The position numbers and the translations under genes were made by a program. Of a stretch of 64,000 nucleotides of DNA, positions 9,001 to 35,048 are shown piece after piece. Below the pieces are notes generated by a model that ran no database searches, was not told the origin of the DNA, and saw only the letters and a program-made list of their open reading frames with translations. The stretch is from Alphaproteobacteria bacterium (GTDB lineage Bacteria > Pseudomonadota > Alphaproteobacteria > UBA828): contig OZ241738.1 of the NCBI GenBank assembly GCA_965200925.1, positions 332,052 to 396,051 of the forward strand. The letters are read 5' to 3'. Numbering within the stretch: position 1 is the stretch's first letter; every line of letters starts with the position of its first letter.

Positions 9001-11500
9001 CCGCCCGTCTCCGAAATCGAGGTGGAAGAGAGCGCCAGCGCCACCGTCGGCAAGGCGTCGTCGTCCCCCAGGGTCAGCGTCACGTTCGGCGGCGCCGCCA
9101 CCCCGTTGCCACCCGCCGCGGTTCCCGAGACCGTCACCGACTTGTTCGGCGAATCCACAGCGTTGCCGTTCGCCGTCACCGTCACCAGGCCCGCGCTCGT
9201 CGTCTCCCCGGCCGCGATAGTCAAAGTCTTCGCGCTCGACAGGGTGAAGTCCGCCGCGACCGCCCCGGTCCCGACGGCCGCTCCCACCGTCACCGTCACC
9301 GCCTCGCTCGACTTGCCCGTAAGCGTCGCCGTCACCGTCGAGATGCCCCCCGTCTCCGAAATCGACGAATCGGAGAGCGCCAGCGCCACCGTCGGCAGCG
9401 CCTCGTCGTCCTTCAGCGTCAGCACCGCTCTCGCCGAAGGAGATATAAGGTCAAAGAGGTTGCCGCCCCCGAACGTCCGGGGCCACTCCCTCCTCCCCGG
9501 GTCCCTCGTTAGCCGGAAAGTATAACGCGCGCCCACCATCACCCGACGGTTGCCGCTGTGGACGTCGTTGTCCACCGCGGCGACGGTCACCGCGCCGGCG
9601 CTCACGGTATCCCCCGCCGCGATGGTCAGGGTGTTGGCCGCGCTCCGGCTGTAGTCGCCCGAATGGAAAGCCAACACCCTGATGGTCGTCGGCACGCTCG
9701 ACGGGTGCGAGAGCGCCGCGGTCACCGTCGCCGTGCTGCCCGCGCCGCTTTCGTCGATGGTCGAGGGCGAAAGCGTCAGCTCCACCGTCGGCAAGGCGTC
9801 GTCGTCCTCCAGAATCAGCACCATGAGCCGCGGGTCCGCGACTCCGTTGCCCCCTGCCGCCGCGCCGCGGACCACTATCCGCTTGTGCGACGAATCGACG
9901 TCGTTGCCGTTCGCCGTCACCGTCACTTCGCCAGCGCTCGTCGTCGCCCCGGCCGCTATGGTCAGCGTCGTCCCCGTGCTCAAGGTGAAGTCGCCCGACA
10001 CCGCCCAGGAGCTGCCGGCCGTCACCGTCACCGTCACCGTCACCGCAGCGCTCGACTTGCCCGAAAGCGTCGCCGTCACCGTCGCAATCCCGCCGGTCTC
10101 CGAAATCGACGAATCGGAGAGCGCCAGCGTCGCCGTCGGCAGGGCCTCGTCGTCGGCCAAGGTCAAGGTCGCGTTCGCCGGGTCCGCGACCCCGTTGCCG
10201 CCCGCCGCCGCGCCGGAGACCGTCACCCGCTTGTCCGGCGCGTCCACGTCGTTGTCGCTGGCCGTGATCGTCACCGTCCCGGTGCTCGTCGTGGCGTTCG
10301 CCGCGATGGTCAGCGTCGTGCCCCCGCTCAGGCCGAAGTCGCCCGCCACCGCGCCCGACGCCGCCACCGCCGCCGCCGCGACCGTGACCGTCACCGCCTC
10401 GCTCGACGGGCCGCCCAGCGCCGCGCTCACCGTCGCCACCCCGCCGTTCTCGGCGATCGACGACGACGACAGCACCAGCGAGACCGTGGGCGGGCCGTCG
10501 TCGTCGCGCAGCGTCAGGGTCGCGTCCGGCGGGTCCGCCGCCCCGAGCGTGCCCGACGCCGAACCCTTCACCGTCACCTGCTTGTCCGGCGAATCCATGT
10601 TGTTCGGTTCCGCGGTCACCGTCACCAGGCCCGCACTCGTCGTCTGCCCGGCAGCGACGGTCAGCGTGTTCGCCGTGCTCAGGGTGAAATCGCCGTCCAC
10701 CGCGCCCGTGGACGCCGTCGCCGACACCGCGATCGTCACCGCCTCGGCCGAGGGGTGGCTCAGGGTCGCGGTCACCGTCGCCACGCCGCCCGACTCCGAG
10801 ATCGACGCCGGGGCGAGGGCGAGCGCCGAACTCGGCCGCGAGTCCTCGTCCGCGATGGTCAGGGTCAGGTCCACCGGCGCCGCCACCAGCCCGTAACCGC
10901 CGTCCACCGCCCCGCTCACCGTCACAAACTTGCCCGACGAGTCGATGGCGTCGTCCGTCGCGGTGATCGTCACCGTGCCCGCGCTCGCCTTCCGCCCCGC
11001 GGCGATGGTCAGCGTGTTCGCCGTGCTCAGGCTGAAGTCGCCGTCCACCGCGCCCGTGGACGCCGTCGCCGACACCGTCACCGTGATCGCCTCCCCGGAG
11101 GGAGTGCCGCTCAGGCGCGCCGTCACCGTCGTCGCGTTGCCCGCCCCGCTCTCCCGGATCGTGTACGGGTACGCTATGTACGGGTCCGACAGCATCAGCA
11201 CCAGGATCGGCGTCCCGTCGTCGTCGGTGATCGTCCCCACCCCGGTCGCCGCGCTCCCGAGCACCGCCCCGGAGGGGTTGGACAGCGCGATGCGGATCGT
11301 CTCGTCGGGCTCGTCCAGCGCGTCGCTCGTCACCGTCACCTCGACGGTCTTGCTGGTCTCGGTAGCGGAGAAGGTCAGCGTGCCCCCGGAGAACGCCGTG
11401 TAGTCGGCGCCGGAGGCCGCCGTGCCCGGGTCCGCGGCCGCCGCCCAGTCCACCGTCACCTGCCGGCCCGGCGCCCGGTTCAGGGCCACCACGAAGGGCA
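1..11500 (-). repeat. Tandem Calx-beta-like coding repeats (~345-360 nt units) within adhesin copy A
   Basis: The plus-strand artefact ORFs show the periodicity. Adjacent units are near-identical at the DNA level. Confidence 0.8.
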
Positions 11501-11660
11501 GCTTCGGCACCTCCGTCTGGCCCGGCCCCCCTTCCGCCACGCTCGGCGAGGAGATGGAGAAGACGATGTCGCCGTCGGTCGCCGCCAGCGCGTGGTGCGC
11601 CGACGCCGCGGCGAACGCCGCCAGCACCGCCGCCAGAGAAATCCGCGCGACCGTCTTCAT
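1..11660 (-). CDS. Giant Calx-beta-repeat autotransporter adhesin, copy A, 5' part only (the 3' end runs off the window start)
   Basis: Homologous to the 35485..56550 gene. The start codon ATG at 11660 (plus-strand cat at 11658-11660) precedes the signal peptide MKTVARISLAAVLAAFAAASAHHALA. No minus-strand stop appears in this frame, since no minus ORF is listed across 1-9450. The repeated motif is TLTLxDDDxLPTVALxLSxxSIxETGG...VTVTANGNxVDSPNKSVTVSG. Confidence 0.75.
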   Translation of the reverse strand, partial: MKTVARISLAAVLAAFAAASAHHALAATDGDIVFSISSPSVAEGGPGQTEVPKLPFVVALNRAPGRQVTVDWAAAADPGTAASGADYTAFSGGTLTFSATETSKTVEVTVTSDALDEPDETIRIALSNPSGAVLGSAATGVGTITDDDGTPILVLMLSDPYIAYPYTIRESGAGNATTVTARLSGTPSGEAITVTVSATASTGAVDGDFSLSTANTLTIAAGRKASAGTVTITATDDAIDSSGKFVTVSGAVDGGYGLVAAPVDLTLTIADEDSRPSSALALAPASISESGGVATVTATLSHPSAEAVTIAVSATASTGAVDGDFTLSTANTLTVAAGQTTSAGLVTVTAEPNNMDSPDKQVTVKGSASGTLGAADPPDATLTLRDDDGPPTVSLVLSSSSIAENGGVATVSAALGGPSSEAVTVTVAAAAVAASGAVAGDFGLSGGTTLTIAANATTSTGTVTITASDNDVDAPDKRVTVSGAAAGGNGVADPANATLTLADDEALPTATLALSDSSISETGGIATVTATLSGKSSAAVTVTVTVTAGSSWAVSGDFTLSTGTTLTIAAGATTSAGEVTVTANGNDVDSSHKRIVVRGAAAGGNGVADPRLMVLILEDDDALPTVELTLSPSTIDESGAGSTATVTAALSHPSSVPTTIRVLAFHSGDYSRSAANTLTIAAGDTVSAGAVTVAAVDNDVHSGNRRVMVGARYTFRLTRDPGRREWPRTFGGGNLFDLISPSARAVLTLKDDEALPTVALALSDSSISETGGISTVTATLTGKSSEAVTVTVGAAVGTGAVAADFTLSSAKTLTIAAGETTSAGLVTVTANGNAVDSPNKSVTVSGTAAGGNGVAAPPNVTLTLGDDDALPTVALALSSTSISETGGISTVTARLSGASSAAVTVTVAAAAGAGAVAADFTQSGTTLTIAAGATTSAGEVTVRANGNAVDSPNKSVTVSGAAAGGNGVANPPNVTLTLEDDETLPTVALMLSDSSISETGGVSTVTATLTGKSSAAVTVAVAAAAGSGAVAADFTQSGTTLTIAAGATTSVGEVTVRANGNAVDSPNKSVTISGTAAGGNGVAAPPDVTLTLEDDDAAPGVTLSLNPTSVSENGGVSTATATLSHPSSEPSTVTVQGVSGSYTVGTDATITIAAGSTTAASDTVLVTAVDDSIHQGSAGRSATVTAALANGQGAGAVTGATLTLTDDETLPTVSLALTPSSIAETNGVATVTARLSGASSAAVTVTVAAAAGTGAVAADFTLSGATTLTIAAGSTESAGLVTVTANGNDVDSPSKSVTVSGTAAGGNGVANPSNVTLTLTDDDALPTLALVLTPATVGENGGVSTVTATLSGKSSAAVTLTVSAAPVASTGAVSGDFALSSTTKLTIAAGATVSTGTVTVTAQDNAADEPDIEVRVSATAAGGNGAAAPSAVTLTIRDDEGPPTVTLALTPSTIDESGTGSTASVTATLNRASSAATTITVSVAPVASTGAAAGDYTLSSANTLTIAAGATTSSGTVTVAAVDNDTDAPNRQATVSGTAVNDQGVQPPVARTLTIADDDALPTVALALSDSSISETSGVATVTATLSGPSSAAVTVTVAAAAGTGAVGADFALSTAKTLTIAANATTSTGLVTVTANGNSVDSPDKSVTVSGTVAGGNGVAAPPNVTLTLEDDDALPTVALALSDSSITETGGVSTVTATLSGPSSAAVTVTVGAAAGSGAVAADFALSTGTTLTIAAGATTSVGEVTVTANGNSVDSPNKSVTISGTAAGGNGVTAPPDVTLTLEDDDAAPGVTLSLNPTSVSENGGVSTVTATLSHPSSEPSTVTVQGVSGSYTVGTDATITIAAGSTTAASDTVLVTAVDDSIHQGSAGRSATVTAVLANGQGTGAVTGATLTLTDDETLPMAALVLSDASISETGGVSTVTATLTGKSSEAVTVTVAAAAGAGAVAADFTLSTAKTLTIAAGSTTSAGLVTVTANGNDVDSPNKSVTVSGTAAGGNGVAVPPDVTLTLTDDDTLPTVALVLMPSTVGENGGVSTVTATLSGKSSAAVTLTVSAAPVASTGAVSGDFALSSTTKLTIAAGATVSTGTVTVTANDNAADEPDIEVRVSATAAGGNGAAAPSGVTLTIRDDEGPPTVTLVLTPSTIDESGTGSTAAVTATLNRVSSAATTITVSVAPVASTGAVAADFTLSSAATLTIAAGATTSSGTVTVAAVDDDTDAPNRQATVSGTAVNDQGVQQPVARTLTIADDDALPTVALALSDSSISETSGVSTVTATLSGPSSAAVTVTVAAAAGTGAVGADFALSTAKTLTIAANATTSTGLVTVTANGNSVDSPDKSVTVSGTVAGGNGVAAPPNVTLTLEDDDALPTVALALSDSSISETGGVSTVTATLTGPSSAAVTVTVAAAAGTDAVAADFTLSSVKTLTIAAGETTSAGLVTVTANGNAVDSPNKSVTVSGTSAGGNGVVNPPNVTLTLEDDETLPTVALALSDSSISETGGVSTVTATLTGPSSAAVTVMVGAAAGAGAVAADFALSTGTTLTFAAGSTTSAGLVTVTANGNDVDSPNKSVTVSGAAAGGNGVAAPPNVTLTLTDDDALPTVALALSDSSISETSGVATVTAMLSGPSSAAVTVTVGAAAGSGAVSGDFTLSTATTLTIAAGSTTSAGLVTVTAVGNSVDSPNKSVTVSGTAAGGNGVAAPPNVTLTLEDDDALPTVALALSDTSISETGGISTVTATLSGPSSEAVTVTVAAAAGTGAVAADFTLSSAKTLTIAASATTSTGLVTVTAVGNAVDSPDKSVTVSGTAAGGNSVAAPPDVTLTLEDDDALPTVALALSDPSISETGGVSTVTATLTGKSSEAVTITVGAAAGSGAVGADFALSTAKTLTIAAGETTSAGLVTVTANGNTVDSPNKSVTVSGTAVGGNGVAAPPNVTLTLTDDDALPTVALALSASSISETGGVSTVTATLSGASSEAVTVTVGAAAGSGAVGADFALSTAKTLTIAAGETTSAGLVTVTANGNTVDSPNKSVTVSGAAMGGNGVANPPNVTLTLEDDETLPTVALALSASSISETGGVSTVTATLSGASSEAVTVTVAAAAGTGAVSGDFTLSTATTLTIAAGSTESTGLVTVRANGNAVDSPNKSVTVSGAAAGGNNVANPPNVTLTLEDDDALPTVALALSASSISETSGVATVTATLTGASSAAVTVTVAAAAGTGAVSGDFTLSTATTLTIAAGSTESAGLVTVTANGNTVDSPNKSVTVTGTAAGGNGVATPPNVTLTLEDDETLPTVALALSASSISETSGVATVTATLSGASSAAVTVTVGAAAGTGAVAADFDLSSATTLTISAGATTSAGLVTVTAVGNAVDSPNKSVTVSGAAAGGNGVATPPNVTLTLEDDDALPTVALVLTPPTVGENGGISTVTATLTGPSSEAVTVTVAAAAGSGAVAADFDLSAAKTLTIAANATTSTGLVTVTAVGNAVDSPDKSVTVSGTAAGGNGVAAPPDVTLTLEDDDALPTVALALSDSSITETGGVATVTATLTGKSSAAVTVTVGAAAGTGAVAADFTLSSAKTLTIAAGSTTSAGLVTVRANGNAVDSPDKSVTVSGTAAGGNGVANPSNVTLTLTDDETLPTVALALSSTSISETGGVATVTATLTGKSSAAVTVTVGAAAGTGAVAADFTLSSAKTLTIAANATISTGLVTVRANGNAVDSPDKSVTVSGTAAGGNGVAASPDVTLTLTDDETLPTVALALSSTSISETGGVATVTATLTGKSSAAVTVTVGAAAGTGAVAADFTLSSAKTLTIAANATTSAGLVTVRANGNAVDSPNKSVTVSGTAAGGNGVANPSNVTLTLTDDETLPTVALVLVPATVGENGGVSTVT

Positions 11661-23228: not shown

Positions 23229-24240
23229 TTATGACCAAGCCGTGGATCGCTGCATGGGCGAGACGTCGCCGAGCACCTCGACCTGGTCGAAGGACAACTT
23301 GGCGAAGGCGAGGCAGGCGGCGACCTCGGCCTCGCTGTCGTAGGTGCCGTGGTCCTCGCCGGTGGCGAGTTCGATGACGGTGTACCGGGCCGGCCAGGTG
23401 GGGATGCCGAGGAAGTGGCCCGAGCGTTCGTGGGACCGGCGGGCGCAGGGTTCGCACCTTACCGCCCCCCCGCGAGGGCTGTCCGCAGTCGGTGCAGAGC
23501 CCCCGCGCCCGCCGTCGGGCGTAGCGCTTGCGGCTGGCGGCGTTCTTCCGCCGATGGCGCCCGGCTTCCAGCGCGGCGCATCGGCCGCAGCGCGCGGTGC
23601 CGTCGAACGTGGCCTCCCCGCATCGGCCGCACAGGCCGCCCGCCCGCCGCCCGGCATACCGTTCCCGTTCGCCCGCGCGCCGCGTCCCTCGGCACGGCTC
23701 GCAGGCCGTGTGGCCCTCGACCGGCGGGTGCAGGCCGCACCGGGTGCACAGGCCGGCCTCGCGGCGGGCGTCGTAGCGCCGCTTGGTCCTGCTGCGCGCG
23801 TTGCGGCGACGCTCCTCCGGGTCGCGCCCGCCGTAGAGTTTGCCGGCGGCCTTGGCCTTCGCGTAGCGGGCACGCTCGGCCGCCTGCCGTTTCCCGGCGC
23901 AACGTCGGCACAAGGTGCGATCGGGCGTGGGCGGCGCCTTGCCGCAATTGGCGCACAGGCCCTGAGCGACGCGCTCGGCGGTGCGTTGCCTCTCGCGCGC
24001 GCGTTCCTTCTCGGAGTTCCTGTAGTGGGGCTTGCCGGCGGCCCTGCGCTTCGCGTCCCGGACGCGCTCGGCTTCGCGCCGCTTCCCGGCGCAGGGCGCG
24101 CACAGCCGGCGCTCAGGTTCGGGCGGCGCCTTGCCGCAATTCACGCACAGGCCCTGGGCGATGCGCTCGGCGGTGCGCCGCCGGAACCGGTCCCGGTCGC
24201 GCGCACGGCCCTCCTCGGGGTTCTTGTAAGCCATGTCCAT
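23229..24240 (-). pseudogene. Basic protein with five tandem zinc-ribbon-like repeats (GLCxxCGxxP...CxxCxxKR), split by a frameshift at a G7/C7 run
   Basis: Frame A (24240 to ~23465) carries repeats 1-4 and the start of repeat 5 (GLCTDCGQPS). Frame B (23873..23229) continues with RCEPCARRSHERSGHFLGIP..., which matches the second half of the repeat. The frames meet at CCCCCCC at 23465-23471, and six rather than seven C would restore a ~335-aa ORF. Confidence 0.55.
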
Positions 24241-24892: not shown

Positions 24893-25210
24893 ATGGCCAA
24901 GCAGTACAAGAGCGATGCCTTGGCGGCGGCGCATGAGACCACACTCGGCCTGACGGAGGCGGGCGTCATGGCGAAGCGCACGATGAGGGTCTTCGACGAC
25001 CTGTGTCTTACGCCGGTCGAAGACATGACGCCGGAGGAGATCCGGGAAATCCGGATGCGGGAGAACGCGAGTCAGGCGGTCTTCGCCCGATATCTCAACG
25101 TGACCACGAGCTTGGTGAGTCAGTGGGAGCGGGGCGAGAAGCGGCCGCGGGGCGCTTCGCTGAAGCTCTTGACGCTGGTCGCGAAGAATAGCCTCGATAC
25201 GGTCGCGTGA
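24893..25210 (+). CDS. XRE-family helix-turn-helix transcriptional regulator (HigA-like)
   Basis: The HTH is AVFARYLNVTTSLVSQWERGEKRPRGASLKLL. No convincing toxin partner is adjacent. Confidence 0.8.
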   Translation: MAKQYKSDALAAAHETTLGLTEAGVMAKRTMRVFDDLCLTPVEDMTPEEIREIRMRENASQAVFARYLNVTTSLVSQWERGEKRPRGASLKLLTLVAKNSLDTVA

Positions 25211-25362
25211 CGGAGGCAGCTGCCCCTGGCGGCGCGCCTGCGGAATACGACAACCGGGCGTGTGCGCGTGCGGCGGCGCGAATCCGATAATGACGGCTTC
25301 GAAGTGATGGCAGGATCGGCCGTCCGGGACGCGCGCGAGTTGGAAGGCGCCCGACGCCGCGG

Positions 25363-25551
25363 CTACTTTCCGATAAAGCCGATGTAGACGTAGAGCGCGG
25401 CCAGGGCCACGGTGACCGCGATGCCGATGTTGCCGTAGATGGGGGCGACCTGGAGACCCAGGAACAAGGCGAACGAGAACACGAGGTAGAGGCTGGCGAG
25501 GGCGGCGACGTGAGCGAGGACTTTCAGCACCTTCCGGGTCGTCGGGGTCAT
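25363..25551 (-). CDS. Small hydrophobic two-helix membrane protein (62 aa)
   Basis: MTPTTRKVLKVLAHVAALASLYLVFSFALFLGLQVAPIYGNIGIAVTVALAALYVYIGFIGK. Confidence 0.35.
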   Translation of the reverse strand: MTPTTRKVLKVLAHVAALASLYLVFSFALFLGLQVAPIYGNIGIAVTVALAALYVYIGFIGK

Positions 25552-25799
25552 GGGCCGCCCGGCTCCCCGACCGGCGCGGCGGGTTCGACGACGCCGTTCG
25601 GATCCGGCGACCATGCAGGCTGGCGCAGATGGTGGGGGCGTCGTGACTGCGGCGCGAGGCGCCTGCGATCACGAAGGTTCCGCCATCGGTAGAAGGTGGC
25701 GCGGGAGACGCCGACGGCGTTGGCTGCGGCTTGTGCGGTCAAGCCGTCGGACTTGACCTGTTGCCATCGGTCGAGAGCGTCGCGTCTGTCTCGAACCAA
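25548..25799 (-). mobile_element. N-terminal HTH fragment of an IS481/IS3-like transposase (truncated remnant)
   Basis: LTAQAAANAVGVSRATFYRWRNLRDRRRLAPQSRRPHHL resembles the transposase HTH plus the DRSRRPH motif. There is no catalytic domain downstream. Confidence 0.45.
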
Positions 25800-26068
25800 C
25801 AGCTTCGGAGATCCCTACACTCCTTCAACAACCGCGTCTCATATCTGTCTGAATTTGTTCATGGATCCCGCCATCGAACGCCACCACCGCGCGGCGGCCT
25901 CCCGCCCTGGAAAAGTCAAACGAAGATGTAGTATACTGCCGTCGGCATCGGGGAACTCCTCTGAGGCGAGATAACTCTTTGGCAACAAAAGAATTATCCC
26001 ACATCCAGAGTCCCGATGTACCGCCCCTTGTGAGAAATGCGGGCTAACAGGAATACAGGTATCCAATC

Positions 26069-26350
26069 ATGCCGCCCACTACATACAAGGTCACGGAAGC
26101 CCGAGCTCACTTCTCGGAGCTTCTGGCGCGGGCCCGAGCCGGCGAGGAGATCGTCATCACCAAGGGCCACGAGCCCCATGCCCGGCTCCTGCCGCCGGCC
26201 GGGCGCGGGGAGCGGGAGAGTGTGCCGCTAGGACATCTCCACCTGCCGGACGACCTCTTCGACGGCGACGATCCGGAACAGGCCGTGATCGATGCCGGCG
26301 ACCGCAACGATGCCCTCGGCATTTGGCGCGGCCGCGCGGCCGCTTCGTGA
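26069..26350 (+). CDS. vapB: Phd/YefM-family antitoxin
   Basis: YKVTEARAHFSELLARARAGEEIVITKGHEPHARLLP. The gene overlaps the downstream PIN gene. Confidence 0.8.
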   Translation: MPPTTYKVTEARAHFSELLARARAGEEIVITKGHEPHARLLPPAGRGERESVPLGHLHLPDDLFDGDDPEQAVIDAGDRNDALGIWRGRAAAS

Positions 26351-26724
26351 GACTGCTCCTTGACAGCCATGCCGTCTATTGGTGGATGACGGGTAACATC
26401 CGGCTGTCCGCGGTCGCCCGGGAACTGATCCTCGACGGCGCGAACGCCGTTCTGGTCAGCGCGGTTTCGATCTACGAAATCGAGCTCAAGGCCGGGCGCA
26501 GGCGCGTGAACCTGCCGCCCCAGGAACTGCGGGCGGCGCTCCGGCGCAACGCTGTCGAGGAGCTGGCCGTCACCCACGACCACGCGGAGTATGCCGCCCA
26601 TCTCACATGGGAGCATCGCGATCCGTGGGACCGTCTGCTGGCTGCCCAGGCCCTTCTGGAGAACTGCGTCCTCGTGTCGGTCGACAAGGTCTTCGACGGC
26701 ATCCCCATCGACCGGCGTTGGTGA
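26323..26724 (+). CDS. vapC: PIN-domain toxin VapC
   Basis: LLLDSHAVYWWMTGN...SAVSIYEIELK...DPWDRLLAAQALLENCVLVSVDKVF carries the PIN acidic residues. The start is TTG at 26323 or GTG at 26347. Confidence 0.85.
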   Translation: MARPRGRFVRLLLDSHAVYWWMTGNIRLSAVARELILDGANAVLVSAVSIYEIELKAGRRRVNLPPQELRAALRRNAVEELAVTHDHAEYAAHLTWEHRDPWDRLLAAQALLENCVLVSVDKVFDGIPIDRRW

Positions 26725-26988: not shown

Positions 26989-28245
26989 TTACGATCGGCC
27001 AAGCTCCTCGGGACGTACATCCATCAGCGTATCGATCCGGTCAGCGATTCGTTGCGCGGGCTCCCGGAGTTGCTCTGCGGTCCAGTCGGCAGCGTAGCCC
27101 TCGGTCACGTCATTGGGCCGGGCATGGTTGACCAGACGCTTGGTCAGGCTCTGCGGCAGCATCAGCTCGCGCTCGGCCACTGTGATGAAACAGTTGCGGA
27201 AGCCGTGGAACCAGAATTTGGCGCCGCCAGCCTTGGTGATCCGGCCGTAGAGATGGTGCGGATCCTCGACATGGCCCGACGCGCTGGTGAGAGAGGGAAA
27301 CACCCAGGCGCGGATGTTGTCCGGCAGGCCCTCGCTTTCCGCCCGGCGGCGCTCGAGGATAGCGCTCAGTTGTCGGGTGACAGGAAGCTCCAGCGGCACA
27401 CCGGTCTTGGTCTCTTCAACTCGAAAGGTCATCGCCGCCATGTCCACCTGCTGCCATCGCAGGGTCAGCACTTCGTCGCGACGCATGCCGGTGTAAAGCC
27501 CGAACCACAGCGCGTCCCGGATCGCCGGGTTGTTCACCTCGGCTTCGATGCCGGCGCGCCAGCATGGCAGGACCTCGGCCGGAGTGGATATCTTGCGCCG
27601 TACCTTGCGGTGAAACTTGCCGCCGCCGGCGAGCCACAGGTCGACCGGGTTGCGCAGGCCGTCGAGATCGACACAGGGCCGACGATAGACCGAGCGCAGC
27701 AAAGAGATCGCTCGGTTGGCCGGCGACCACCCGTGATCCTCGGTGATGCGGTTGAAGCGGCCCTCCACGTCCCGGCGGGCGATGGCATCGAGGGGGCGGG
27801 AGAGCCAATCACCGAGATAGCGCTTGGCCTCGTAGCGGTAGAGCTCGTTCGTGCGTCTGGACCGGTTGGGATTGACCGCCATGTAATCCTCAAAGGCGTC
27901 CCCAAGCGTCGGCATGGTGCGCGCCTCCGCCCGGTCCTCGGCCGGGTCGTCGCCGTCGGCGACCTTGCCGAGGGCCTTCTGCGCCAGCCGCCGTGCCTGA
28001 TCGGGGGCGACCTTGCCGTAGCGGCCGAGGACGACACGCTTGTTGGGGGCCTTTCTGCCGCCATCCCCGGCGCGGTAGTTGACGATGAAGGATTTGACGC
28101 CGGAGGGCTGGATGCGGACGCCGAAGCCGGTGAGCTTGTCGTCCCATGCGATCCAGGGCGTGCTGGCGGGCTCGAGGGCATCGACGGCGCGCTTGGTGAG
28201 CGTCAGCTTGGTTTTCGCGATGCGTTTGGCGGTCTGGGCATCCAT
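26989..28245 (-). CDS. int: Tyrosine-type site-specific integrase (P4-like, with N-terminal arm-binding domain)
   Basis: The N-terminus is LTGFGVRIQPSGVKSFIVNYR. The catalytic motifs are RDALWFGLYTGMRRDEV, HGFRNCF and LVNHARPNDVTEGYA. Confidence 0.9.
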   Translation of the reverse strand: MDAQTAKRIAKTKLTLTKRAVDALEPASTPWIAWDDKLTGFGVRIQPSGVKSFIVNYRAGDGGRKAPNKRVVLGRYGKVAPDQARRLAQKALGKVADGDDPAEDRAEARTMPTLGDAFEDYMAVNPNRSRRTNELYRYEAKRYLGDWLSRPLDAIARRDVEGRFNRITEDHGWSPANRAISLLRSVYRRPCVDLDGLRNPVDLWLAGGGKFHRKVRRKISTPAEVLPCWRAGIEAEVNNPAIRDALWFGLYTGMRRDEVLTLRWQQVDMAAMTFRVEETKTGVPLELPVTRQLSAILERRRAESEGLPDNIRAWVFPSLTSASGHVEDPHHLYGRITKAGGAKFWFHGFRNCFITVAERELMLPQSLTKRLVNHARPNDVTEGYAADWTAEQLREPAQRIADRIDTLMDVRPEELGRS

Positions 28246-28435
28246 TCAGAAAATGTGGCCCGCCTGGTGATCCATGTCAACACCTGTATCAACACGGTAA
28301 ATCGATATGGGACGCTCTACAGCGCAGGTGTGACGGGTTTGTATGCGGGAAAATACACTCAATACATTGATATTACGATATGTATGGCGCTTCCGGCGCA
28401 TCCGGTCGCAACACGGCGTAAATTAGCTGGCGAGA

Positions 28436-28480
28436 CTCATAACCTGAAGGTCGCAGGTTCGAATCCTGCCCCCGCAACCA
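28436..28480 (+). other. Partial tRNA, 3' 45 nt only (CAU anticodon loop through T-arm, acceptor and CCA), the probable att core of the integrative element
   Basis: The anticodon loop CTCATAA is followed by stem CCTGA, variable region AGGTC, T-arm GCAGG-TTCGAAT-CCTGC, acceptor CCCCGCA, discriminator A and CCA. Upstream there is no complementary acceptor 5' strand (TGCGGGG) and no anticodon-stem partner, so the gene is not intact. It lies 190 nt from the integrase start. Confidence 0.65.
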
Positions 28481-28483
28481 CTC

Positions 28484-28520
28484 CAAACCCCTGGAAACAT
28501 TGATGTTTCCGGGGGTTTTC
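28484..28520 (+). terminator. Rho-independent terminator immediately after the tRNA fragment
   Basis: The palindrome CCCCTGGAAACAT-TG-ATGTTTCCGGGGG is followed by TTTTCTCGTTTC. Confidence 0.6.
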
Positions 28521-28974: not shown

Positions 28975-29622
28975 TCATCCCGCCGAGAGCAAGTCGCGGA
29001 GAAAGGCGGAGAGGTCCGCGAAGGCGTCTGAGTCGAAATCCCATACGCCCTGCAGGGCGCCTTCGCCCACCCGCGCCACGGGGTCGTCCGTGGCAGCGAG
29101 ATAGGCATGGGCGAATGTCTTGTCGCGGTTCCCGGAGCGCGTAACCCCGCGCCCGTCGAGACAGCTCAAGTAGTCTTCGACGCATCCGCTCACGGCGTCC
29201 CCTTCTCGGGAGCGCTTGCACAGGGTTTCGATGGCGCCGGGCGTGCTACCGTCCGGAACGATGAACACGCCGACGGTCGGCTTGGCGTCTGAAAACCCGC
29301 CGTGGGCCGTCGGCGGCTCGTATCCGGCGTCGCAAAGATGGTCGCAGAGGCTCTGGAACGCGCCGCCCGCATTGTCGTCGGCGTCCCGGACTGCGCCGAT
29401 GGCCCGGACACTCCGGGCTTCGGCCGTGATCGCACGCAGATTGTTCGGAAACCTGTCCCTACCTCCCGCGTCGATGACTTGTATCTCCGACCGTCTTTCC
29501 CTGCCAAAGCGACGTCTTATAAGTACATCGAACAGGTTGACTTCGTCGCGGCCTTCCACCAGCAACAGACGATCCTTCTCGATCTTCAGCTTTTGCCTGT
29601 CGCTCCCCACGTCGGCTGTCAT
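28975..29622 (-). CDS. Small TOPRIM/OLD-like protein (DUF4276- or RloB/AriB-like), 215 aa, partner of the upstream ATPase
   Basis: The N-terminus reads KDRLLLVEGRDEVNLFDVLIRR, a toprim-like glutamate motif. An acidic DxD-like cluster follows at AIGAVRDADDNAGGAF. The start ATG overlaps the ATPase stop (TGATGA), indicating translational coupling. GC content is lower than the surroundings. Confidence 0.5.
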   Translation of the reverse strand: MTADVGSDRQKLKIEKDRLLLVEGRDEVNLFDVLIRRRFGRERRSEIQVIDAGGRDRFPNNLRAITAEARSVRAIGAVRDADDNAGGAFQSLCDHLCDAGYEPPTAHGGFSDAKPTVGVFIVPDGSTPGAIETLCKRSREGDAVSGCVEDYLSCLDGRGVTRSGNRDKTFAHAYLAATDDPVARVGEGALQGVWDFDSDAFADLSAFLRDLLSAG

Positions 29623-30677
29623 CACCGGGTCTCCAGGTCGAGATCGCGTACGCCCTCGAGCGTCTCGCCAGTGAAGGTCGTCGCTTCCACCTTCCCCGTC
29701 TTCTCGTTCCTGAACAGCTTGTGGATCGCCAGATCGTTCGGTGCGTCTTCGAACGCGGCCATCGCCGCGTCGATACATTCGGCGCTGTGGGTCGTCGCCA
29801 CCAGTTGCGCATTCCACTGACGCATCCACGTGCGTCCATGCGCCCAAACATCCTTCAGCACGGAATGGTGAAGGCCGTTTTCCACCTCATCCGAAAAAAG
29901 AACTCCGCCGCGTGAAGTAAAAAATCCAAGAAATAACTGACACAATCGAACGACTCCACCTCCGAGATCGTGAAGTGGTAACTGCACGCCATCGTTCGTG
30001 ACGGCCGACAGGTACGGTCCTCCTGTTTCGTCAGTCAAAATCCCCACATCCGCAACTTTAGGAAAGATAAAGTTGATCGCATTTCTGAAATCGTCTTTAT
30101 GGTTTTTCCTTACCATATCCGAATATTTCTGAAGATAGTTTTCGGGTGTTTCGTGTTGAAATTTTGTGCTCAAAATAGTACTGCTTGGTCTCTTCGAATG
30201 AGGCTCGGGCGTGTGAAGCGCCACCGTCCCCCAAGGAGTCGGAAGCATTCCTGTAGCCTTTTGTCCCGCGGGGATTCCATCCAATTCCGTGTGGACCTGT
30301 CCTACCGTGGGTAGCTCAACAAAGCTGTTTTCCGCTGAATTCTCAATCGGTGCCGTCCTGACGTCCGAAACGTCACCGACTTTCTTGAAAGTGGCTTTCA
30401 AATTGTGAAGAGATTCGTTCTCCACTCCCTCCAGTTCCAACACACCGTTCGTCAATTTGGCGATGGGATCCAGTATTGGCCTATTGGAACGCTGCACATT
30501 GGCATTCCATAACAACGAGGTGTTGTATCGTCCGGTGAACAGCCACATCGCCTCAATCACCGCCGTCTTGCCAATCCCGTTGACGCCGGTCACAAGATTG
30601 GCGTTCGCCAGATGGCGGAAGGAAAGTCCATCTATCCCTCGATAGTGGACGGCCTTGAAACTGGTGAAAAAAGTCAT
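29622..30677 (-). CDS. AAA_21/AAA_15-type ABC ATPase (~351 aa)
   Basis: Walker A is LVTGVNGIGKTAVIEAM. The signature-like segment is DLGGGVVRLCQLFL, Walker B with D-loop is VLFSDEVENGLH, and the H-loop is LVATTHS. The start was chosen at MTFFTSFKAVHYRGIDG (30677, with a GGGGA RBS), and an alternative ATG lies at 30710. The region is about 50% GC against about 70% around it. Confidence 0.75.
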   Translation of the reverse strand: MTFFTSFKAVHYRGIDGLSFRHLANANLVTGVNGIGKTAVIEAMWLFTGRYNTSLLWNANVQRSNRPILDPIAKLTNGVLELEGVENESLHNLKATFKKVGDVSDVRTAPIENSAENSFVELPTVGQVHTELDGIPAGQKATGMLPTPWGTVALHTPEPHSKRPSSTILSTKFQHETPENYLQKYSDMVRKNHKDDFRNAINFIFPKVADVGILTDETGGPYLSAVTNDGVQLPLHDLGGGVVRLCQLFLGFFTSRGGVLFSDEVENGLHHSVLKDVWAHGRTWMRQWNAQLVATTHSAECIDAAMAAFEDAPNDLAIHKLFRNEKTGKVEATTFTGETLEGVRDLDLETR

Positions 30678-31498
30678 CTCATGTCCCCACTTCCGGAGTC
30701 GCGTTGCCAAGGGCGTCGAAACCGCGACTCCGTTCCGCGCTGGAGAGTGCCGAGGCTTCGGTTGCGCTCCAGCAACTCCCGCAGTGCCTCTTCATCGGAA
30801 ATGCTCACACCCCAACCGTAGGCGGCGGCGACAGCGGCGTCAAGATTCGTGTGGGCGTCGGTGAGCCATTGGGGGCGGGTGTTGTAGAGGGCAGTCAGGG
30901 TGCGCTTCTTGAGCTCCCTTGCCACCGCTTCGTCGCGAGGGGCGGGGCGTCTGGGGTAGCCGGGGATCGGTTCCTCCAGCCACTCCACCCATTCGGGCGG
31001 GTTGAGCCAGCGGTCGCGGAGGGCGACCAAGCGGCGGGCAGCCTCGGCGCTGGCGCTGGTGCGCGGGTCGTCGGCGTAGGCGGCCGCGGGGATGTCGGGG
31101 GAGAGGCCTTGGGGGAAGGGGAAGGTTTCGAAGGTTGTGGTGGGGGTGTAGCGGGGGCGGTCCTCAAGGCTGGTGCCCAACCGCAATGACCATGCTTCGT
31201 GAAACCGGCTGTGCAGGATGCCGAAGGTCGTGTCGTCGTCGCGGGCGATCACGATCAGCGGGTGATCGGGGCAGACGCGCGAATCGAGCCAGACGAACAG
31301 CCGGTGCTTGGCGACGGTGGGCGTGGCGATGTAGCGGGATGCCACGCCAATCCGCTGGAACATCGTTTGTCCCGAGCGATCGTGCCGCCACCAGTTCCGT
31401 CGCAGATCGTCACGGCGATTGCGATCTCGCACCGGTTTCACATGCTCCAGGACATGAGCGAACGGCGCTTCGTAGAGCGCGGCGTCGGCTTCGCTCAT
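30674..31498 (-). pseudogene. C-terminal fragment (~274 aa) of an MmeI/PglX-type (type IIG RM or BREX) methyltransferase
   Basis: TPTVAKHRLFVWLDSRVCPDHPLIVIARDDDTTFGILHSRFHEAWSLRLGTSLEDRPRYTPTTTFETFPFP matches the conserved C-terminal domain of MmeI/PglX-like enzymes. No methyltransferase or N-terminal domain is upstream, where an integrase fragment sits instead. Confidence 0.55.
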
Positions 31499-31557
31499 CG
31501 TGTGTCCAAAATCAATGATCCACTTGCCGGACGGGCGCCGCGTCACGTCCATGCCGT

Positions 31558-31795
31558 TTATCATCCCTGGCGGCGCATCCGGGCGCGCGCAGGCCTCGAC
31601 GACGTGCGCATCCACGACCTCCGTCACAGCTTTGCCTCCCGCGCCTTGGCGCTCGGCGAGGGCCTGCCCATGATCGGGAAGCTGCTCGGCCACACCCAGT
31701 CCAGACCACCGCCCGCTACGCTCACCTCGCCCGCGATACCGTCAAGACCTCCGCCGCCCGTATCGGCGACAGCATCGAGCACGATATGACAGAGG
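31558..31795 (+). pseudogene. Tyrosine integrase C-terminal fragment (frameshifted)
   Basis: WRRIRARAGLDDVRIHDLRHSFASRALALGEGLPMIGKLLGHTQ is about 90% identical in DNA to 33100-33342. A 1-nt deletion lies before the catalytic Tyr region. Confidence 0.6.
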
Positions 31796-31922
31796 TAGAA
31801 TAACGGGCTCGCGGGATCCGATGAGTCCGTGCGAAACAGGATGTCGCCTGTCAGGACTGTCTCCGCATCACTTGACGTATCTCAATTGAGATTCATATGG
31901 TTGGCAAATGGAGGAATGCCCA

Positions 31923-32216
31923 ATGCCCGCTCAGACATCGATGCTCCATGTCCGCGTGGACAATCAACTCAAGACCAAAGCGGCCGACACGCTGGCTGGC
32001 GTCGGCCTGACGCTCTCGGATGCCGTGCGCATCCTCCTGACCCGTATTGCCGCGGAGGGTGGGTTGCCGACCGGCCTGACCACCGACCCCGAAACCCATG
32101 ACGCGTGGTTCCGCGCCAAGGTACGGGAAGCCCTGGACGATCCGCATCCCACTGCTTCACACGAACAGGTCATGAGCGACGCGCAGGCGCTGATCGACGG
32201 AAAGCGCCGTGCGTGA
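31923..32216 (+). CDS. relB: RelB/DinJ-family antitoxin
   Basis: MLHVRVDNQLKTKAADTLAGVGLTLSDAVRILLTRIAAEG. RBS GGAGGA precedes the start by 7 nt. There is an 8-nt overlap with the toxin gene. Confidence 0.75.
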   Translation: MPAQTSMLHVRVDNQLKTKAADTLAGVGLTLSDAVRILLTRIAAEGGLPTGLTTDPETHDAWFRAKVREALDDPHPTASHEQVMSDAQALIDGKRRA

Positions 32217-32490
32217 TCTTGAATGGAAGACCTTGGCGGTCTCCGATCTGATGGCGATCATCGATTATATTTCGGACGACAATCCCAAGGCCGCCCAAGC
32301 CTTGAAGGAAGATATCGAGAACAAGGTGTCGCGTTTACGGGACAACCCACGACTTTACAGGGTCGGTCGCGTGGACGGCACCCGCGAGATGATCGTGCGT
32401 TCGAACTACCTCGTCGTCTATGCCGAGGTCCCCCACACTGTCACGATACTTCGGGTGCTGCATGCGGCCCAGCAGTGGCCCGAAACATGA
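32209..32490 (+). CDS. relE: RelE/ParE-family toxin
   Basis: WKTLAVSDLMAIIDYISDDNPKAAQALKEDIENKVSRLRDNPRLYRVGRVDGTREMIVRSNYLVVY. Confidence 0.8.
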   Translation: MRDLEWKTLAVSDLMAIIDYISDDNPKAAQALKEDIENKVSRLRDNPRLYRVGRVDGTREMIVRSNYLVVYAEVPHTVTILRVLHAAQQWPET

Positions 32491-32748
32491 CGACGGTCGG
32501 TCGGCCATCTTGACAAATGAACCGAGACCTCTGCAGGCGGCGGGCTTGAACGAGGGACCGATCGCCGGTGGGACGGCGTAGGCCTCTCGTGGACCGCGAC
32601 GGGGACTGTGGCAGCAGCGTTGGCGCTCGCTCCCTATCTCGAGACTATTGCAACCGGCGGGGTCTTTATCGATAGGGAGACAATCGCCGGGCTCGAATCC
32701 GCGGCCATGAACGGCCGGCCTGCAACCGCTTGAAGACGGCGGCTCGCC

Positions 32749-33342
32749 TTGCGTCCGTTTCCTTCCCGACAGCCAAGCCGTCGAGCTCAATCGGCTCGGG
32801 CAGGTCCTCGACGAGATGACGTCGGACGGCTCGGAAACCCGTTCGGCGGTGGTGGCGATCCGACTCCTGGTGCTTACCGGCTGTCGGCTGTCCGAGATCC
32901 AGAAGCTGCGCTGGGAGCGTGTCGACTTCGATGCCGGCGAGTTGCGGCTTCCCGACAGCAAGACCGGAGGACGTGCGGTGCCGCTGGCGCCCTCCGCCGT
33001 GCGGCTCTGGCGGCTCTGCCTCGCGACCCGGATAACCCGTGGGTGATCGCCGGAAGGAAGCCGGGGACCCACCTGACCGACCTGCAACATCCCTGGCGGT
33101 GCATCCGGGCGCGCGCAGGCCTCGACGACATGCGCATCCATGACCTGCGGCACTCCTTCGCCTCCCGCGCCTTGGCGCTCGGCGAGAACCTGCCGATGAT
33201 CGGGAAGCTCCTCGGTCATATCCAGGTCCAGACCCCCGCTCGCTACGCTCACCTCGCCCGCGATACCGTCAAGGCTTCCGCCGCCCGCATCGGCGACAGC
33301 ATTGAGCGCGATCTGGGGGCGGAGGAAACAAGCGCGGTTTGA
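32749..33342 (+). pseudogene. Tyrosine integrase fragment (catalytic domain, frameshifted, N-terminus missing)
   Basis: One frame gives VAIRLLVLTGCRLSEIQKLRWERVDFDAGELRLPDSKTGGRAVPL (32816..33046). A second frame gives PWVIAGRKPGTHL...RIHDLRHSFAS...LLGHIQVQTPARYAHLA (to 33342). Confidence 0.7.
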
Positions 33343-33348
33343 GCGCGC

Positions 33349-33618
33349 TTAACGGTTTCCGGCGTCGAGAACCCGCTGAAGCCGGTCGAGTGCAGCCGCA
33401 TGTTTCCGCCCGCTCATTCGACCGAGATTGACGAGTTTCCATCTGACGGCCGGCAGCCCGGCAACATCGGAGAGATCGATGAGCGACCAGTCCGGATGCC
33501 GGCCCTTTACCGACAACAGGAACGCGCGATCCCCGTCGGTGAGTGCGCCATGAATGTCCGCGATAAGCCGCTCGCGCGCCTCGGTCAGCGCGATCAACGG
33601 AACCGGCTCGCGGGTCAT
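33349..33618 (-). CDS. Hypothetical protein (89 aa), possibly the C-terminal part of the AbiEii-like gene
   Basis: The start overlaps the upstream stop by 4 nt (ATGA). Confidence 0.3.
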   Translation of the reverse strand: MTREPVPLIALTEARERLIADIHGALTDGDRAFLLSVKGRHPDWSLIDLSDVAGLPAVRWKLVNLGRMSGRKHAAALDRLQRVLDAGNR

Positions 33619-34255
33619 ATGCTTGAACTCGCCTTCGTAGAATGCGCGGACGGGCTTGCGCCTCGGGGCCAGTTATGGCCGATCAGATAGACCAGAAAAG
33701 TCATGAACAGGCCCCTGTCGATGCCCTCGTTGTTCAGCAGCTGCGTGATGTCGAACAGATCGCGCGGGTGCTGCCGGTCGAGCGCCGCGCACATCTTGCC
33801 CGCGTAGAGATCGTTGAACGACAGGATCCGGTTCTCGGTGTAGCCCAAGCTTTCTTCGACTTCCGCGACGACGGCCCGCGTTTCCGAAGGCCAGACCGCG
33901 CCGCGCGCGACCGGGGAGACCTCGATCTTGATACGACAGTCGTGCAACTCTAACGTAAGCCGCAACGCATCCGTCGCGGATGGATCCGTGGTCTGCACCC
34001 CGATGCCGGGAATGGCGCCCCTCAAGTCTTTCGCGAGCGTGTCGAGACCCCGGCGTATCGCCGGCAAGGCCTCTGTTGGCGAGGCGAGCGCGGCAAGTAG
34101 GCGAGATCGATGTCCACCGACAGACGGGGCAGATTGCGCAGAAAGAGACTGATCGCGGTGCCGCCCTTCAAGGCGAACTCGTCCCGCCTCGCGACATAGG
34201 GCAGGACCCGGACCACGAGCTCCACTTGGCGGTGGAACGGATTGCGCCTATCCAT
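33615..34255 (-). pseudogene. AbiEii-family nucleotidyltransferase toxin (type IV TA), split by a frameshift near 34022-34067
   Basis: The N-terminus is FALKGGTAISLFLRNLPRLSVDIDLAYLP (NTase GS...DxD). The second ORF carries ...HPRDLFDITQLLNNEGIDRGLF. Confidence 0.55.
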
Positions 34256-35048
34256 GCATCGCTTCCGGCACGGTGATCCCGTACCGGCTCACCAGCCGAC
34301 CGCCCTTGGCTAGAACTCGCTTGCCGCGACCGAGATCGAAGTCGCCCGGTTCCAGACGCTTCGCCCAGGAATGCCCCTGCCGCTCGGCCAACCAGAAAAA
34401 CAGGCGCTTGACCTTGATGCTGCGCGTCCGGCGCAGGAGTGCGTCGAGCCGGCGCGGCGAAAGGTCGGCAAGACTTTCCATCAGTCGCTCCGCGTACTCG
34501 AACGACACTCCCGCCGGCACGTCCTTCAATATCTCGAACAACGCCCGCTCGGCCGTCGAGGTCTGCACCGCCCAGAAGCCGTCGCCCCAAGGAACGTCGA
34601 CCGTCAGGGACGGCGTGAGGCGCCGCGCCTCGTCCCCCGCCGGCCCGTCCGGCCCCGACAGCCATGCCGTGCCATGCCGGTGGAACGTCTCGGCGGTGCC
34701 GAGCCCGTTGATCCACGGCGGCAACGGCCGGGGGCCGTACAGGTGTATCGCGCGTCGCCCAGTCAGAGGCAGATAGTGCGCCCGCCCATGCAACTCCAGC
34801 GCGGTCGTTCCACCGACGACGAGACCACTGCCCATCCGTTGGAGGGAGCAGACGATTCCCTGCCAGACGAGCCGACTCCCCGGGCGTATGTATACGCCGG
34901 CCCGGAGCGGCATGAGCTGGCCGCTCTTGACCAGGTTGTCGACGGCGTGCCGGGCGATGCCGCGCTCCATGAGCCACGGCCGGGTGGCGAGGAGGCCGTA
35001 GGGAACCAACTCCAGCAGTTCGGTGCGTAAGGCGACATTGAGAGGCAT
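34248..35048 (-). CDS. AbiEi-family antitoxin/transcriptional regulator (266 aa)
   Basis: A winged-helix N-terminus (LVKSGQLMPLRAGVYI) precedes a C-terminal domain. The position, orientation and 8-nt overlap with the downstream NTase gene fit AbiEi/AbiEii operons. Confidence 0.6.
   Translation of the reverse strand: MPLNVALRTELLELVPYGLLATRPWLMERGIARHAVDNLVKSGQLMPLRAGVYIRPGSRLVWQGIVCSLQRMGSGLVVGGTTALELHGRAHYLPLTGRRAIHLYGPRPLPPWINGLGTAETFHRHGTAWLSGPDGPAGDEARRLTPSLTVDVPWGDGFWAVQTSTAERALFEILKDVPAGVSFEYAERLMESLADLSPRRLDALLRRTRSIKVKRLFFWLAERQGHSWAKRLEPGDFDLGRGKRVLAKGGRLVSRYGITVPEAMHG

Follow-up and report, generated by a model that had tools for sequence, protein, structure and literature searches.

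A candidate defence pair of the DUF3226/PDC-M38 family, an ABC-type ATPase with a small TOPRIM protein, in an apparently decayed islet of an alphaproteobacterium

Pairs of an ATPase and a TOPRIM protein, among them PARIS, AbiL, OLD, Gabija and HEC-01, form one of the main designs that recur in bacterial immunity, and to our knowledge the mechanism is understood for PARIS and Gabija only. In PARIS, AriB is bound by AriA, and once the phage protein Ocr has set it free, tRNA-Lys is cleaved; PARIS also behaves as a type II toxin-antitoxin (TA) system. AbiL and RloAB have been assigned to this class of ATPase plus TOPRIM systems as well. Here we describe a gene pair of this design in a 64,000 nucleotide stretch of an alphaproteobacterial genome of the UBA828 lineage (contig OZ241738.1, positions 332,052 to 396,051; hereafter the window). 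The pair lies on the minus strand at positions 28,975 to 30,677 of the window and encodes an ABC-type ATPase and a small TOPRIM protein. It is a member of an already catalogued family (Pfam DUF3226, PADLOC PDC-M38), and as a candidate defence system it is modestly new.

A first-pass annotation, made from the letters of the window alone, had described open reading frames (ORFs) of 351 and 215 amino acids with overlapping stop and start codons, and both ORFs and the overlap (TGATG) were found where it had placed them (Table 1). The overlap implies that the two genes are translationally coupled, as judged from the sequence. The program-made ORF list also gives longer forms of 362 and 290 amino acids that start at TTG, whereas the ATG starts match the starts of the homologues for both proteins. 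Each protein has hundreds of full-length homologues, the top non-identical matches of the two proteins having E values of 1e-127 and 1e-207, and the small protein family comprises 2,446 clusters at 50% identity. The ratios of nonsynonymous to synonymous substitution rates (dN/dS), calculated pairwise against four relatives, ranged from 0.19 to 0.43, and neither stops nor frameshifts were present. Given these homologues and dN/dS values, both genes are real, intact and under purifying selection, and are not chance ORFs. The pair had also been described as a cassette of about 50% guanine plus cytosine (GC); this is true of the ATPase gene (52.4%) but not of the small gene (64.3%), the window as a whole being 70.1% GC, so that the ATPase gene alone is low in GC.

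Using Pfam to search the two proteins for known domains, we found that the small protein belongs to DUF3226 (PF11536), with a score of 101.8 bits (E value 6e-29) against a gathering cut-off of 27 bits and an alignment over profile positions 2-207 of 208. Among the PADLOC models, the best match of the ATPase was PDC-M38A (PDLC04611, E value 4.6e-38), followed by AbiLi (4.4e-29) and AriA (1.5e-19), and four more PDC-M38A models matched at 1e-27 to 1e-16. The small protein matched PDC-M38B only (PDLC04624, E value 7.3e-10), with residues 8-211 aligned to profile positions 5-217 of 220. The modest score of this last match (7e-10) reflects the distance of the alphaproteobacterial, sponge-type clade from the RefSeq sequences on which the models were built. 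The ATPase gene and the small gene are adjacent and on the same strand, as in the gene layout of PDC-M38, and no substantive difference sets the pair apart from that family. When 81 diverse homologues of the small protein were searched in the same manner, all 81 matched DUF3226 and 80 matched PDC-M38B, with 47 matching OLD-like_TOPRIM (E value of 0.01 or less) and six DUF4435; weak matches to mad4 (18), GajA (16), AriB (14), AbiLii (6) and Old (4) were scattered among them. An NCBIfam search of the pair returned no family at its cut-off. We hold the assignment of family and fold with high confidence. PDC-M38 is one of the 145 'phage defence candidates' of Payne et al. 2024 (bioRxiv 10.1101/2024.01.29.577857) and was proposed from its embedding in BREX, DISARM or type I RM (restriction-modification) loci, much as the window pair adjoins an MmeI-family gene. 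The suggestion in the first-pass annotation of a possibly undescribed variant therefore falls, as the family is already in Pfam and PADLOC. What our analysis adds is the strict conservation of the two-gene arrangement, a structural assignment as a 'split OLD', and the repeated attachment of the pair to the 3' end of two types of RM system.

The TOPRIM signature is defined by a conserved glutamate followed by a DxD motif. In the small protein it takes the form of VEGxDE and RDAD, contained in the motifs LLLVEGRDE (residues 19-27) and VRDADDN (residues 78-84). An alignment of the 81 homologues, which are 30-58% identical, showed G24, D80, G129, C147 and C154 to be invariant and V22, E23, D26, G54, R79, A81, E132, C135 and K168 to be at least 90% conserved. 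The TOPRIM glutamate E23 and the DxD residues D80 and D82 are conserved and a TOPRIM fold is predicted; the putative catalytic residues were assigned by motif. The closest counterparts of the predicted fold are PH0156 (2P62) and, in class 2 OLD nucleases, the catalytic TOPRIM region, with further structure-comparison scores of 8.3 to the T7 primase TOPRIM domain, 8.2 to a small TOPRIM protein, 7.7 to GajA and 7.5 to retron Ec67. Foldseek independently placed the C-terminal regions of the Xanthomonas and Burkholderia class 2 OLD proteins first (probability 0.97-1.0, template-modelling score about 0.5), followed by GajA and retron Eco2. AriB was not among the top 50-60 structural matches in either search. 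PH0156 of Pyrococcus horikoshii, the founder of DUF3226, is a structural-genomics entry that is 16% identical to the small protein, and 2P62 was the only chain in the Protein Data Bank (PDB) matched by the DUF3226 profile. The small protein is thus best described, on its predicted structure, as a free-standing OLD catalytic region composed of a TOPRIM core and a helical extension. A comparison with the OLD fold had been proposed in the first-pass annotation, and the predicted model, with its conserved acidic residues, agrees with that expectation. In the helical extension beyond the TOPRIM core, the same homologues keep C135, C147 and C154 without exception or in at least 90% of cases, alongside K168. 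These four residues may constitute a metal or redox site, as suggested by their conservation. No comparable cysteine site was present among the matches examined for the small protein, and we know of none in OLD, AriB or GajA.

The ATPase exceeded the Pfam cut-offs of AAA_21 (55.9 bits, cut-off 27, E value 9e-15) and AAA_15 (40.6 bits, cut-off 32.1), and the description of the pair as an AAA_21-type ATPase coupled to a small TOPRIM protein is borne out, the fold of the latter by prediction. It contains GVNGIGKT (residues 31-38), an LGGG signature-like segment (238-241), FSDEVENGLH (261-270) and ATTHS (294-298), and all of these motifs vary little or not at all among 41 ATPase homologues with 58-87% identity; the same is true, among homologues of the small protein, of the small-protein motifs that had been read from the sequence. 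Structural modeling gives this AAA_21/AAA_15 ABC ATPase a head of the Rad50/SMC/PtuA/AriA type. The highest structure-comparison scores were to Septu PtuA (17.5), the ATPases of retrons Eco7 and Ec83 (about 17) and PARIS AriA (15.5), followed by the OLD protein of retron Eco8 (15.0), GajA (14.4) and RecF (14.2), with the nucleotide-binding domains of transporters at 13.7 or less. A sequence search against all PDB chains matched no solved structure, that of AriA included. No coiled coil was found in the ATPase. We considered a transporter or SMC role and rejected it, since both a membrane partner and a coiled coil are lacking and defence-type profiles score far higher; the grouping with defence ATPases anticipated by the first-pass annotation thus holds for both profiles and folds. 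A small β-rich insert separates the two halves of the ATPase head, and residues 105-119 within it are predicted to be disordered. The rate at which the insert (residues 95-175) evolves is 2-4 times that of the catalytic core, with omega values of 0.27-0.63 against 0.1-0.29 for the core in the closer relatives (L003 to L007 in our numbering of loci), in which dS is unsaturated, and at greater depth the insert retains 35-38% identity compared to 68-78% for the core. This insert may be a specificity or sensor region.

The pair had been put forward as a candidate AbiL or PARIS system, and this was not upheld. Since the small protein matched neither AriB nor DUF4435 nor AbiLii at an E value of 1 or less, and these profiles define the partner proteins, the pair appears by sequence to be neither PARIS nor AbiL but to belong to the architectural class that PARIS, AbiL, RloAB and HEC-01 have in common. 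The AriA match of the ATPase is clearly weaker than those to PDC-M38A and AbiLi. AbiL is the nearest experimentally validated system by ATPase profile, although just the C-terminal half aligns well; AbiLii is, like the small protein, predicted to be an OLD-like TOPRIM protein, and it is the AbiLii model that six of the 81 family members match weakly. The more general proposal of a partner of the OLD, AriB, RloB or DUF4276 type survives for the OLD-like fold, while models of AriB, RloB and DUF4276 gave no match at an E value of 1 or less. Gabija and Septu were rejected, as no GajB helicase or PtuB HNH gene lies beside the pair in the window, in agreement with the first-pass annotation, nor did either recur in 78 loci of relatives; the GajA and PtuA matches are weak and partial, and GajA is a fused ATPase-TOPRIM protein. 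Class 2 OLD nucleases (Bp and Xcc OLD; PDB 6NK8, 6NJV-X) likewise have the ATPase and TOPRIM domains in one polypeptide, whereas in the present family they are always encoded by two genes, and sequence similarity is at the profile level only. ABC-type ATPase modules attached to RM operons, as this pair is in some relatives, also include PrrC, RloAB and the mad3/mad4 genes of MADS. PrrC differs in its nuclease from the TOPRIM protein of the pair. In MADS, mad3 (the ATPase) and mad4 are both required for defence; they are weak profile relatives of the pair, with all scores below the curated cut-offs. Membership in MADS was rejected, since the mad3 model NF047739 gave 22.7 bits against a cut-off of 420 and the six or more further genes that MADS requires, including the core mad6-8, are absent at the window pair.

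When one genome of each GTDB species was scanned, 80 loci were obtained. In 79 of these an ATPase homologue ends at the start of the DUF3226 gene on the same strand, the remaining locus being a truncated copy. The pair was found across more than 10 phyla, its hosts comprising Alpha- and Gammaproteobacteria, Latescibacterota, Binatia, Acidobacteriota, Chloroflexota, Planctomycetota, Cyanobacteria, Bdellovibrionota, Cloacimonadota, Spirochaetota and Bacillota, and numerous metagenome-assembled genomes (MAGs) among them are from sponge-associated lineages (for example Entotheonella, Poribacteria and Aphanocapsa feldmannii). Averaged over 64 loci, the ATPase gene was 9 points and the small gene 5 points lower in GC than the flanks, which fits horizontal acquisition. 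No third gene is conserved, as the 308 flanking ORFs of 78 loci fell into 256 clusters without a recurrent one, and most of the 208 flanking ORFs scanned with Pfam were metabolic or housekeeping genes. Apart from the RM-linked subset, defence genes were not enriched among the flanking ORFs.

In about one locus per eight to ten the pair lies at the 3' end of an RM operon, sometimes overlapping it, while at approximately 80% of loci no RM gene occurs within two genes on either side. Two types of RM system are involved. In the clade of the window (L001/L006, L003, L005 and L007), a type IIG enzyme of the MmeI family is encoded directly upstream of the pair. At four other loci (L017, L031, L034 and L040) a complete hsdR-hsdM-hsdS operon is found upstream on the same strand; it immediately precedes the pair in L017 and L031, with hsdS overlapping the ATPase start by 4 nucleotides in L031, and in L034 an extra AAA_15/AAA_21 ATPase gene intervenes after hsdS. 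The hsdR-hsdM-hsdS-ATPase-DUF3226 block (about 3.6-10.6 kb per locus) was present in MAGs of Gammaproteobacteria, Binatia, Paracoccaceae and Ca. Versatilivorator. Because HsdR and HsdM are 77-85% identical across hosts of different phyla, this five-gene block appears to be transferred horizontally as one unit. Locus L005 contains an additional 338 amino acid ORF (7931-8947) between the MmeI-family gene and the ATPase gene, with a weak, sub-threshold match to Nuc_deoxyrib_tr, and L007 has a repeat gene, like the giant ORF of the window described below, near the cassette.

In the window itself, only the 3' part of the MmeI-family gene remains upstream of the pair. This remnant matches MmeI_TRD (E value 6e-8) and MmeI_C (5e-6), can be aligned with residues 555-850 of the full-length L001 enzyme, and its stop overlaps the ATPase start (ATGA); the ORF in which it lies (30674-31693) is MmeI-like only from position 31561 downwards. 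At the nucleotide level, homology to the relatives breaks off precisely at positions 31562 and 28975, except that for the closest relative, L003, it reaches 28748. A fragment of a tyrosine integrase gene begins at 31562, the exact truncation point, and a second copy of it lies within an ORF (32749-33339) that has a Phage_integrase match. The MmeI-family gene has thus lost its nuclease, helicase-spacer and methyltransferase parts with the pair left untouched. The pair is therefore an orphan in a decayed integrative islet in which the MmeI-family gene has been destroyed. The islet character noted by the first-pass annotation was well founded, as an integrase, Phd/PIN, RelB/ParE, AbiEi, an AbiEii fragment, the MmeI-family fragment and two integrase fragments are all present. 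In a search for a tRNA at the island border, neither ARAGORN nor Rfam called one, and we found only a degraded tRNA-Met (17.6 bits against a threshold of 29 for the Rfam tRNA model) with an intact 3' half and a strong hairpin terminator. Lying beside the integrase, it is probably an old attachment site. A scan for promoters and terminators around the pair gave nothing informative.

Small addiction and defence modules, a helix-turn-helix gene included, cluster at 24893-26724 and 31908-35048. Farther away, a giant ORF of 7,037 amino acids with tandem repeats of about 115 residues occupies 35485-56598 on the minus strand, and a related repeat array lies at about 1-11570. The segment 22771-24816 is very rich in GC (74-78%), with a 192 nucleotide tandem duplication at 23810-24182, and contains a 489 amino acid ORF with repeated Cys-rich and Arg-rich motifs (CxxCGKAPP...CxxCAGKRR).

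Table 1. Positions of the pair, its key residues and the neighbouring features, in window coordinates
Feature	Position	Strand	Details
ABC-type ATPase gene (PDC-M38A/AAA_21)	29622..30677	-	351 amino acids plus stop
ATPase reading frame	ATG at 30677 to 29625	-	stop 29624-29622
ATPase Walker A	30564-30587	-	GxNGxGKT, residues 31-38
ATPase Q-loop-like motif			VQR, residues 61-63
ATPase signature-like motif			LGGG, residues 238-241
ATPase Walker B, D263-E264	29886-29891	-	Walker B/D-loop DExENG, residues 263-268
ATPase H-loop, His297	29787-29789	-	TTHS, residues 295-298
Small TOPRIM protein gene (DUF3226/PDC-M38B)	28975..29622	-	215 amino acids plus stop
Small protein reading frame	ATG at 29622 to 28978	-	stop 28977-28975
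TOPRIM Glu23 of small protein	29554-29556	-	
Asp80/Asp82 of small protein	29383-29385/29377-29379	-	
Stop/start overlap TGATG	29620..29624	-	ATPase TGA and small gene ATG, one base in common
MmeI-family type IIG RM gene, 3' remnant	30674..31561	-	last ~295 codons: target recognition domain and C-terminal domain
Tyrosine integrase, 3' fragment	31562..31788	+	227 nucleotides; replaces 5' two-thirds of MmeI-family gene
Second integrase 3' copy	33088-33315	+	direct repeats D2/D3, 89-91% identical
Islet integrase	26989-28245	-	
Degraded tRNA-Met (CAT) with terminator hairpin	28412-28518	+	tRNA part 28412-28480, hairpin 28485-28518
Phd/PIN	26069-26724		
RelB/ParE	31908-32490		
Truncated AbiEii	33615-34067		
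AbiEi	34248-35048		

Taken as predicted, the two proteins, whose genes co-evolve, make up a self-contained two-gene module that is in effect a 'split OLD'. By analogy with PARIS, AbiL, OLD and Gabija, translational coupling would yield the ATPase and the small protein in fixed proportion, and the two would form a complex. The ATPase would sense an infection cue through its variable insert, and the binding or hydrolysis of ATP would release or activate the TOPRIM nuclease, which would cut nucleic acid (DNA or tRNA) with a metal site composed of E23 and D80/D82. Cleavage would then stop phage replication, possibly at a cost to the cell. The repeated position of the pair at the 3' end of RM operons suggests that it can act as a second line behind restriction, with the bypass or inhibition of restriction as a possible trigger. 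Taken as a whole, we consider this model, an ATP-controlled sensor with a nuclease effector serving in conflict or defence, to be somewhat probable; that the effector acts by release in particular is a tentative idea, which we rate as doubtful. Several observations weigh against the model. Complex formation, trigger, substrate and toxicity are all inferred. The small protein scores just under the cut-off of OLD-like_TOPRIM (PF20469; 21.2 against 23.2 bits, E value 4e-4, residues 17-63), and a sigma-70-like promoter for the orphaned pair was not detected, although such a scan says little in an alphaproteobacterium of 70% GC. At about 65 of the 80 loci the pair stands alone between metabolic or housekeeping genes, and guilt by association is weak for that reason. 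Its subfamily was not found in the plasmids of PLSDB or in GenBank phages and occurred in two IMG/VR contigs only. Our literature search found DUF3226 in no paper and PDC-M38 in a supplementary list only. Payne et al. 2024 entered their candidates, PDC-M38 included, into PADLOC without testing them, and HEC-01, another ATPase plus TOPRIM system, gave no protection in their hands, but a later study did find it protective. The same authors reported a weaker association with other defence systems for embedded candidates than for those derived from enrichment.

The small protein's closest solved functional relatives are the DNA-cleaving class 2 OLD regions and GajA rather than AriB, and the ATPase head resembles the DNA-binding heads of Rad50, SMC and RecF. 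These likenesses would suit an ATP-regulated DNA nuclease in the manner of OLD or Gabija, in which the complex would bind invading DNA and itself nick or degrade it, with no release step and no host suicide, and which may also sense nucleotide depletion. We regard this alternative as unlikely, because OLD and GajA are single polypeptides, whereas the domains here are always separate genes, there is no helicase partner (GajB or UvrD-like), and by profile 14 of the 81 family members touch AriB as opposed to four for Old. A different explanation is that the pair is a selfish, TA-like addiction module, able to maintain and spread itself while bringing hardly any net benefit, or none, against phages. 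It is mostly a solitary two-gene insertion among housekeeping genes, lower in GC than its flanks and patchy across phyla; in the window it sits amid other TA modules and decayed elements, and PARIS itself behaves as a TA system. However, a TA module may serve in defence as well, the position of the pair repeatedly suits co-transcription with RM operons of two types, and the fast-evolving insert of the ATPase is more in keeping with an arms race than with addiction alone, so that we find this explanation very unlikely. Lower still in our estimation is the idea that the two proteins are accessory subunits of the upstream RM enzyme, like mad3 and mad4 in MADS, and functional only with it, which would make the window copy a dead relic. 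The MmeI-family gene is always directly upstream in the clade of the window with overlapping stop and start, the type I blocks with closely similar HsdR and HsdM in different phyla move as a unit, and mad3 and mad4, both essential to MADS, are distant profile relatives; but the roughly 80% of loci that have no nearby RM gene indicate that the pair is autonomous in most genomes, and both window genes have stayed full-length and free of frameshifts despite the loss of the MmeI gene. The sensor and effector model could also be extended to a 'split OLD' that has a mechanism of its own and stands guard over restriction enzymes. The pair would then be transcribed from the 3' end of type I or MmeI-type RM operons and would fire when a phage disables or evades restriction, with the ATPase insert as sensor and the C135/C147/C154 and K168 site conferring a chemistry or regulation unlike that of OLD, AriB or GajA. 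So specific a scheme we think quite unlikely.

For the annotation of the source genome the finding is an ordinary one, that is, one more orphaned defence-type cassette in a decayed integrative islet. Its wider interest lies in the family, as DUF3226/PDC-M38 is a large and phylogenetically broad branch of the ATPase plus TOPRIM design, of which the window pair is a compact, intact unit of 1.7 kb. Natural comparisons are available between the pair alone, the pair behind a type I RM operon and the pair behind an MmeI-type enzyme, which could reveal whether modules of this kind serve as a backup to restriction.

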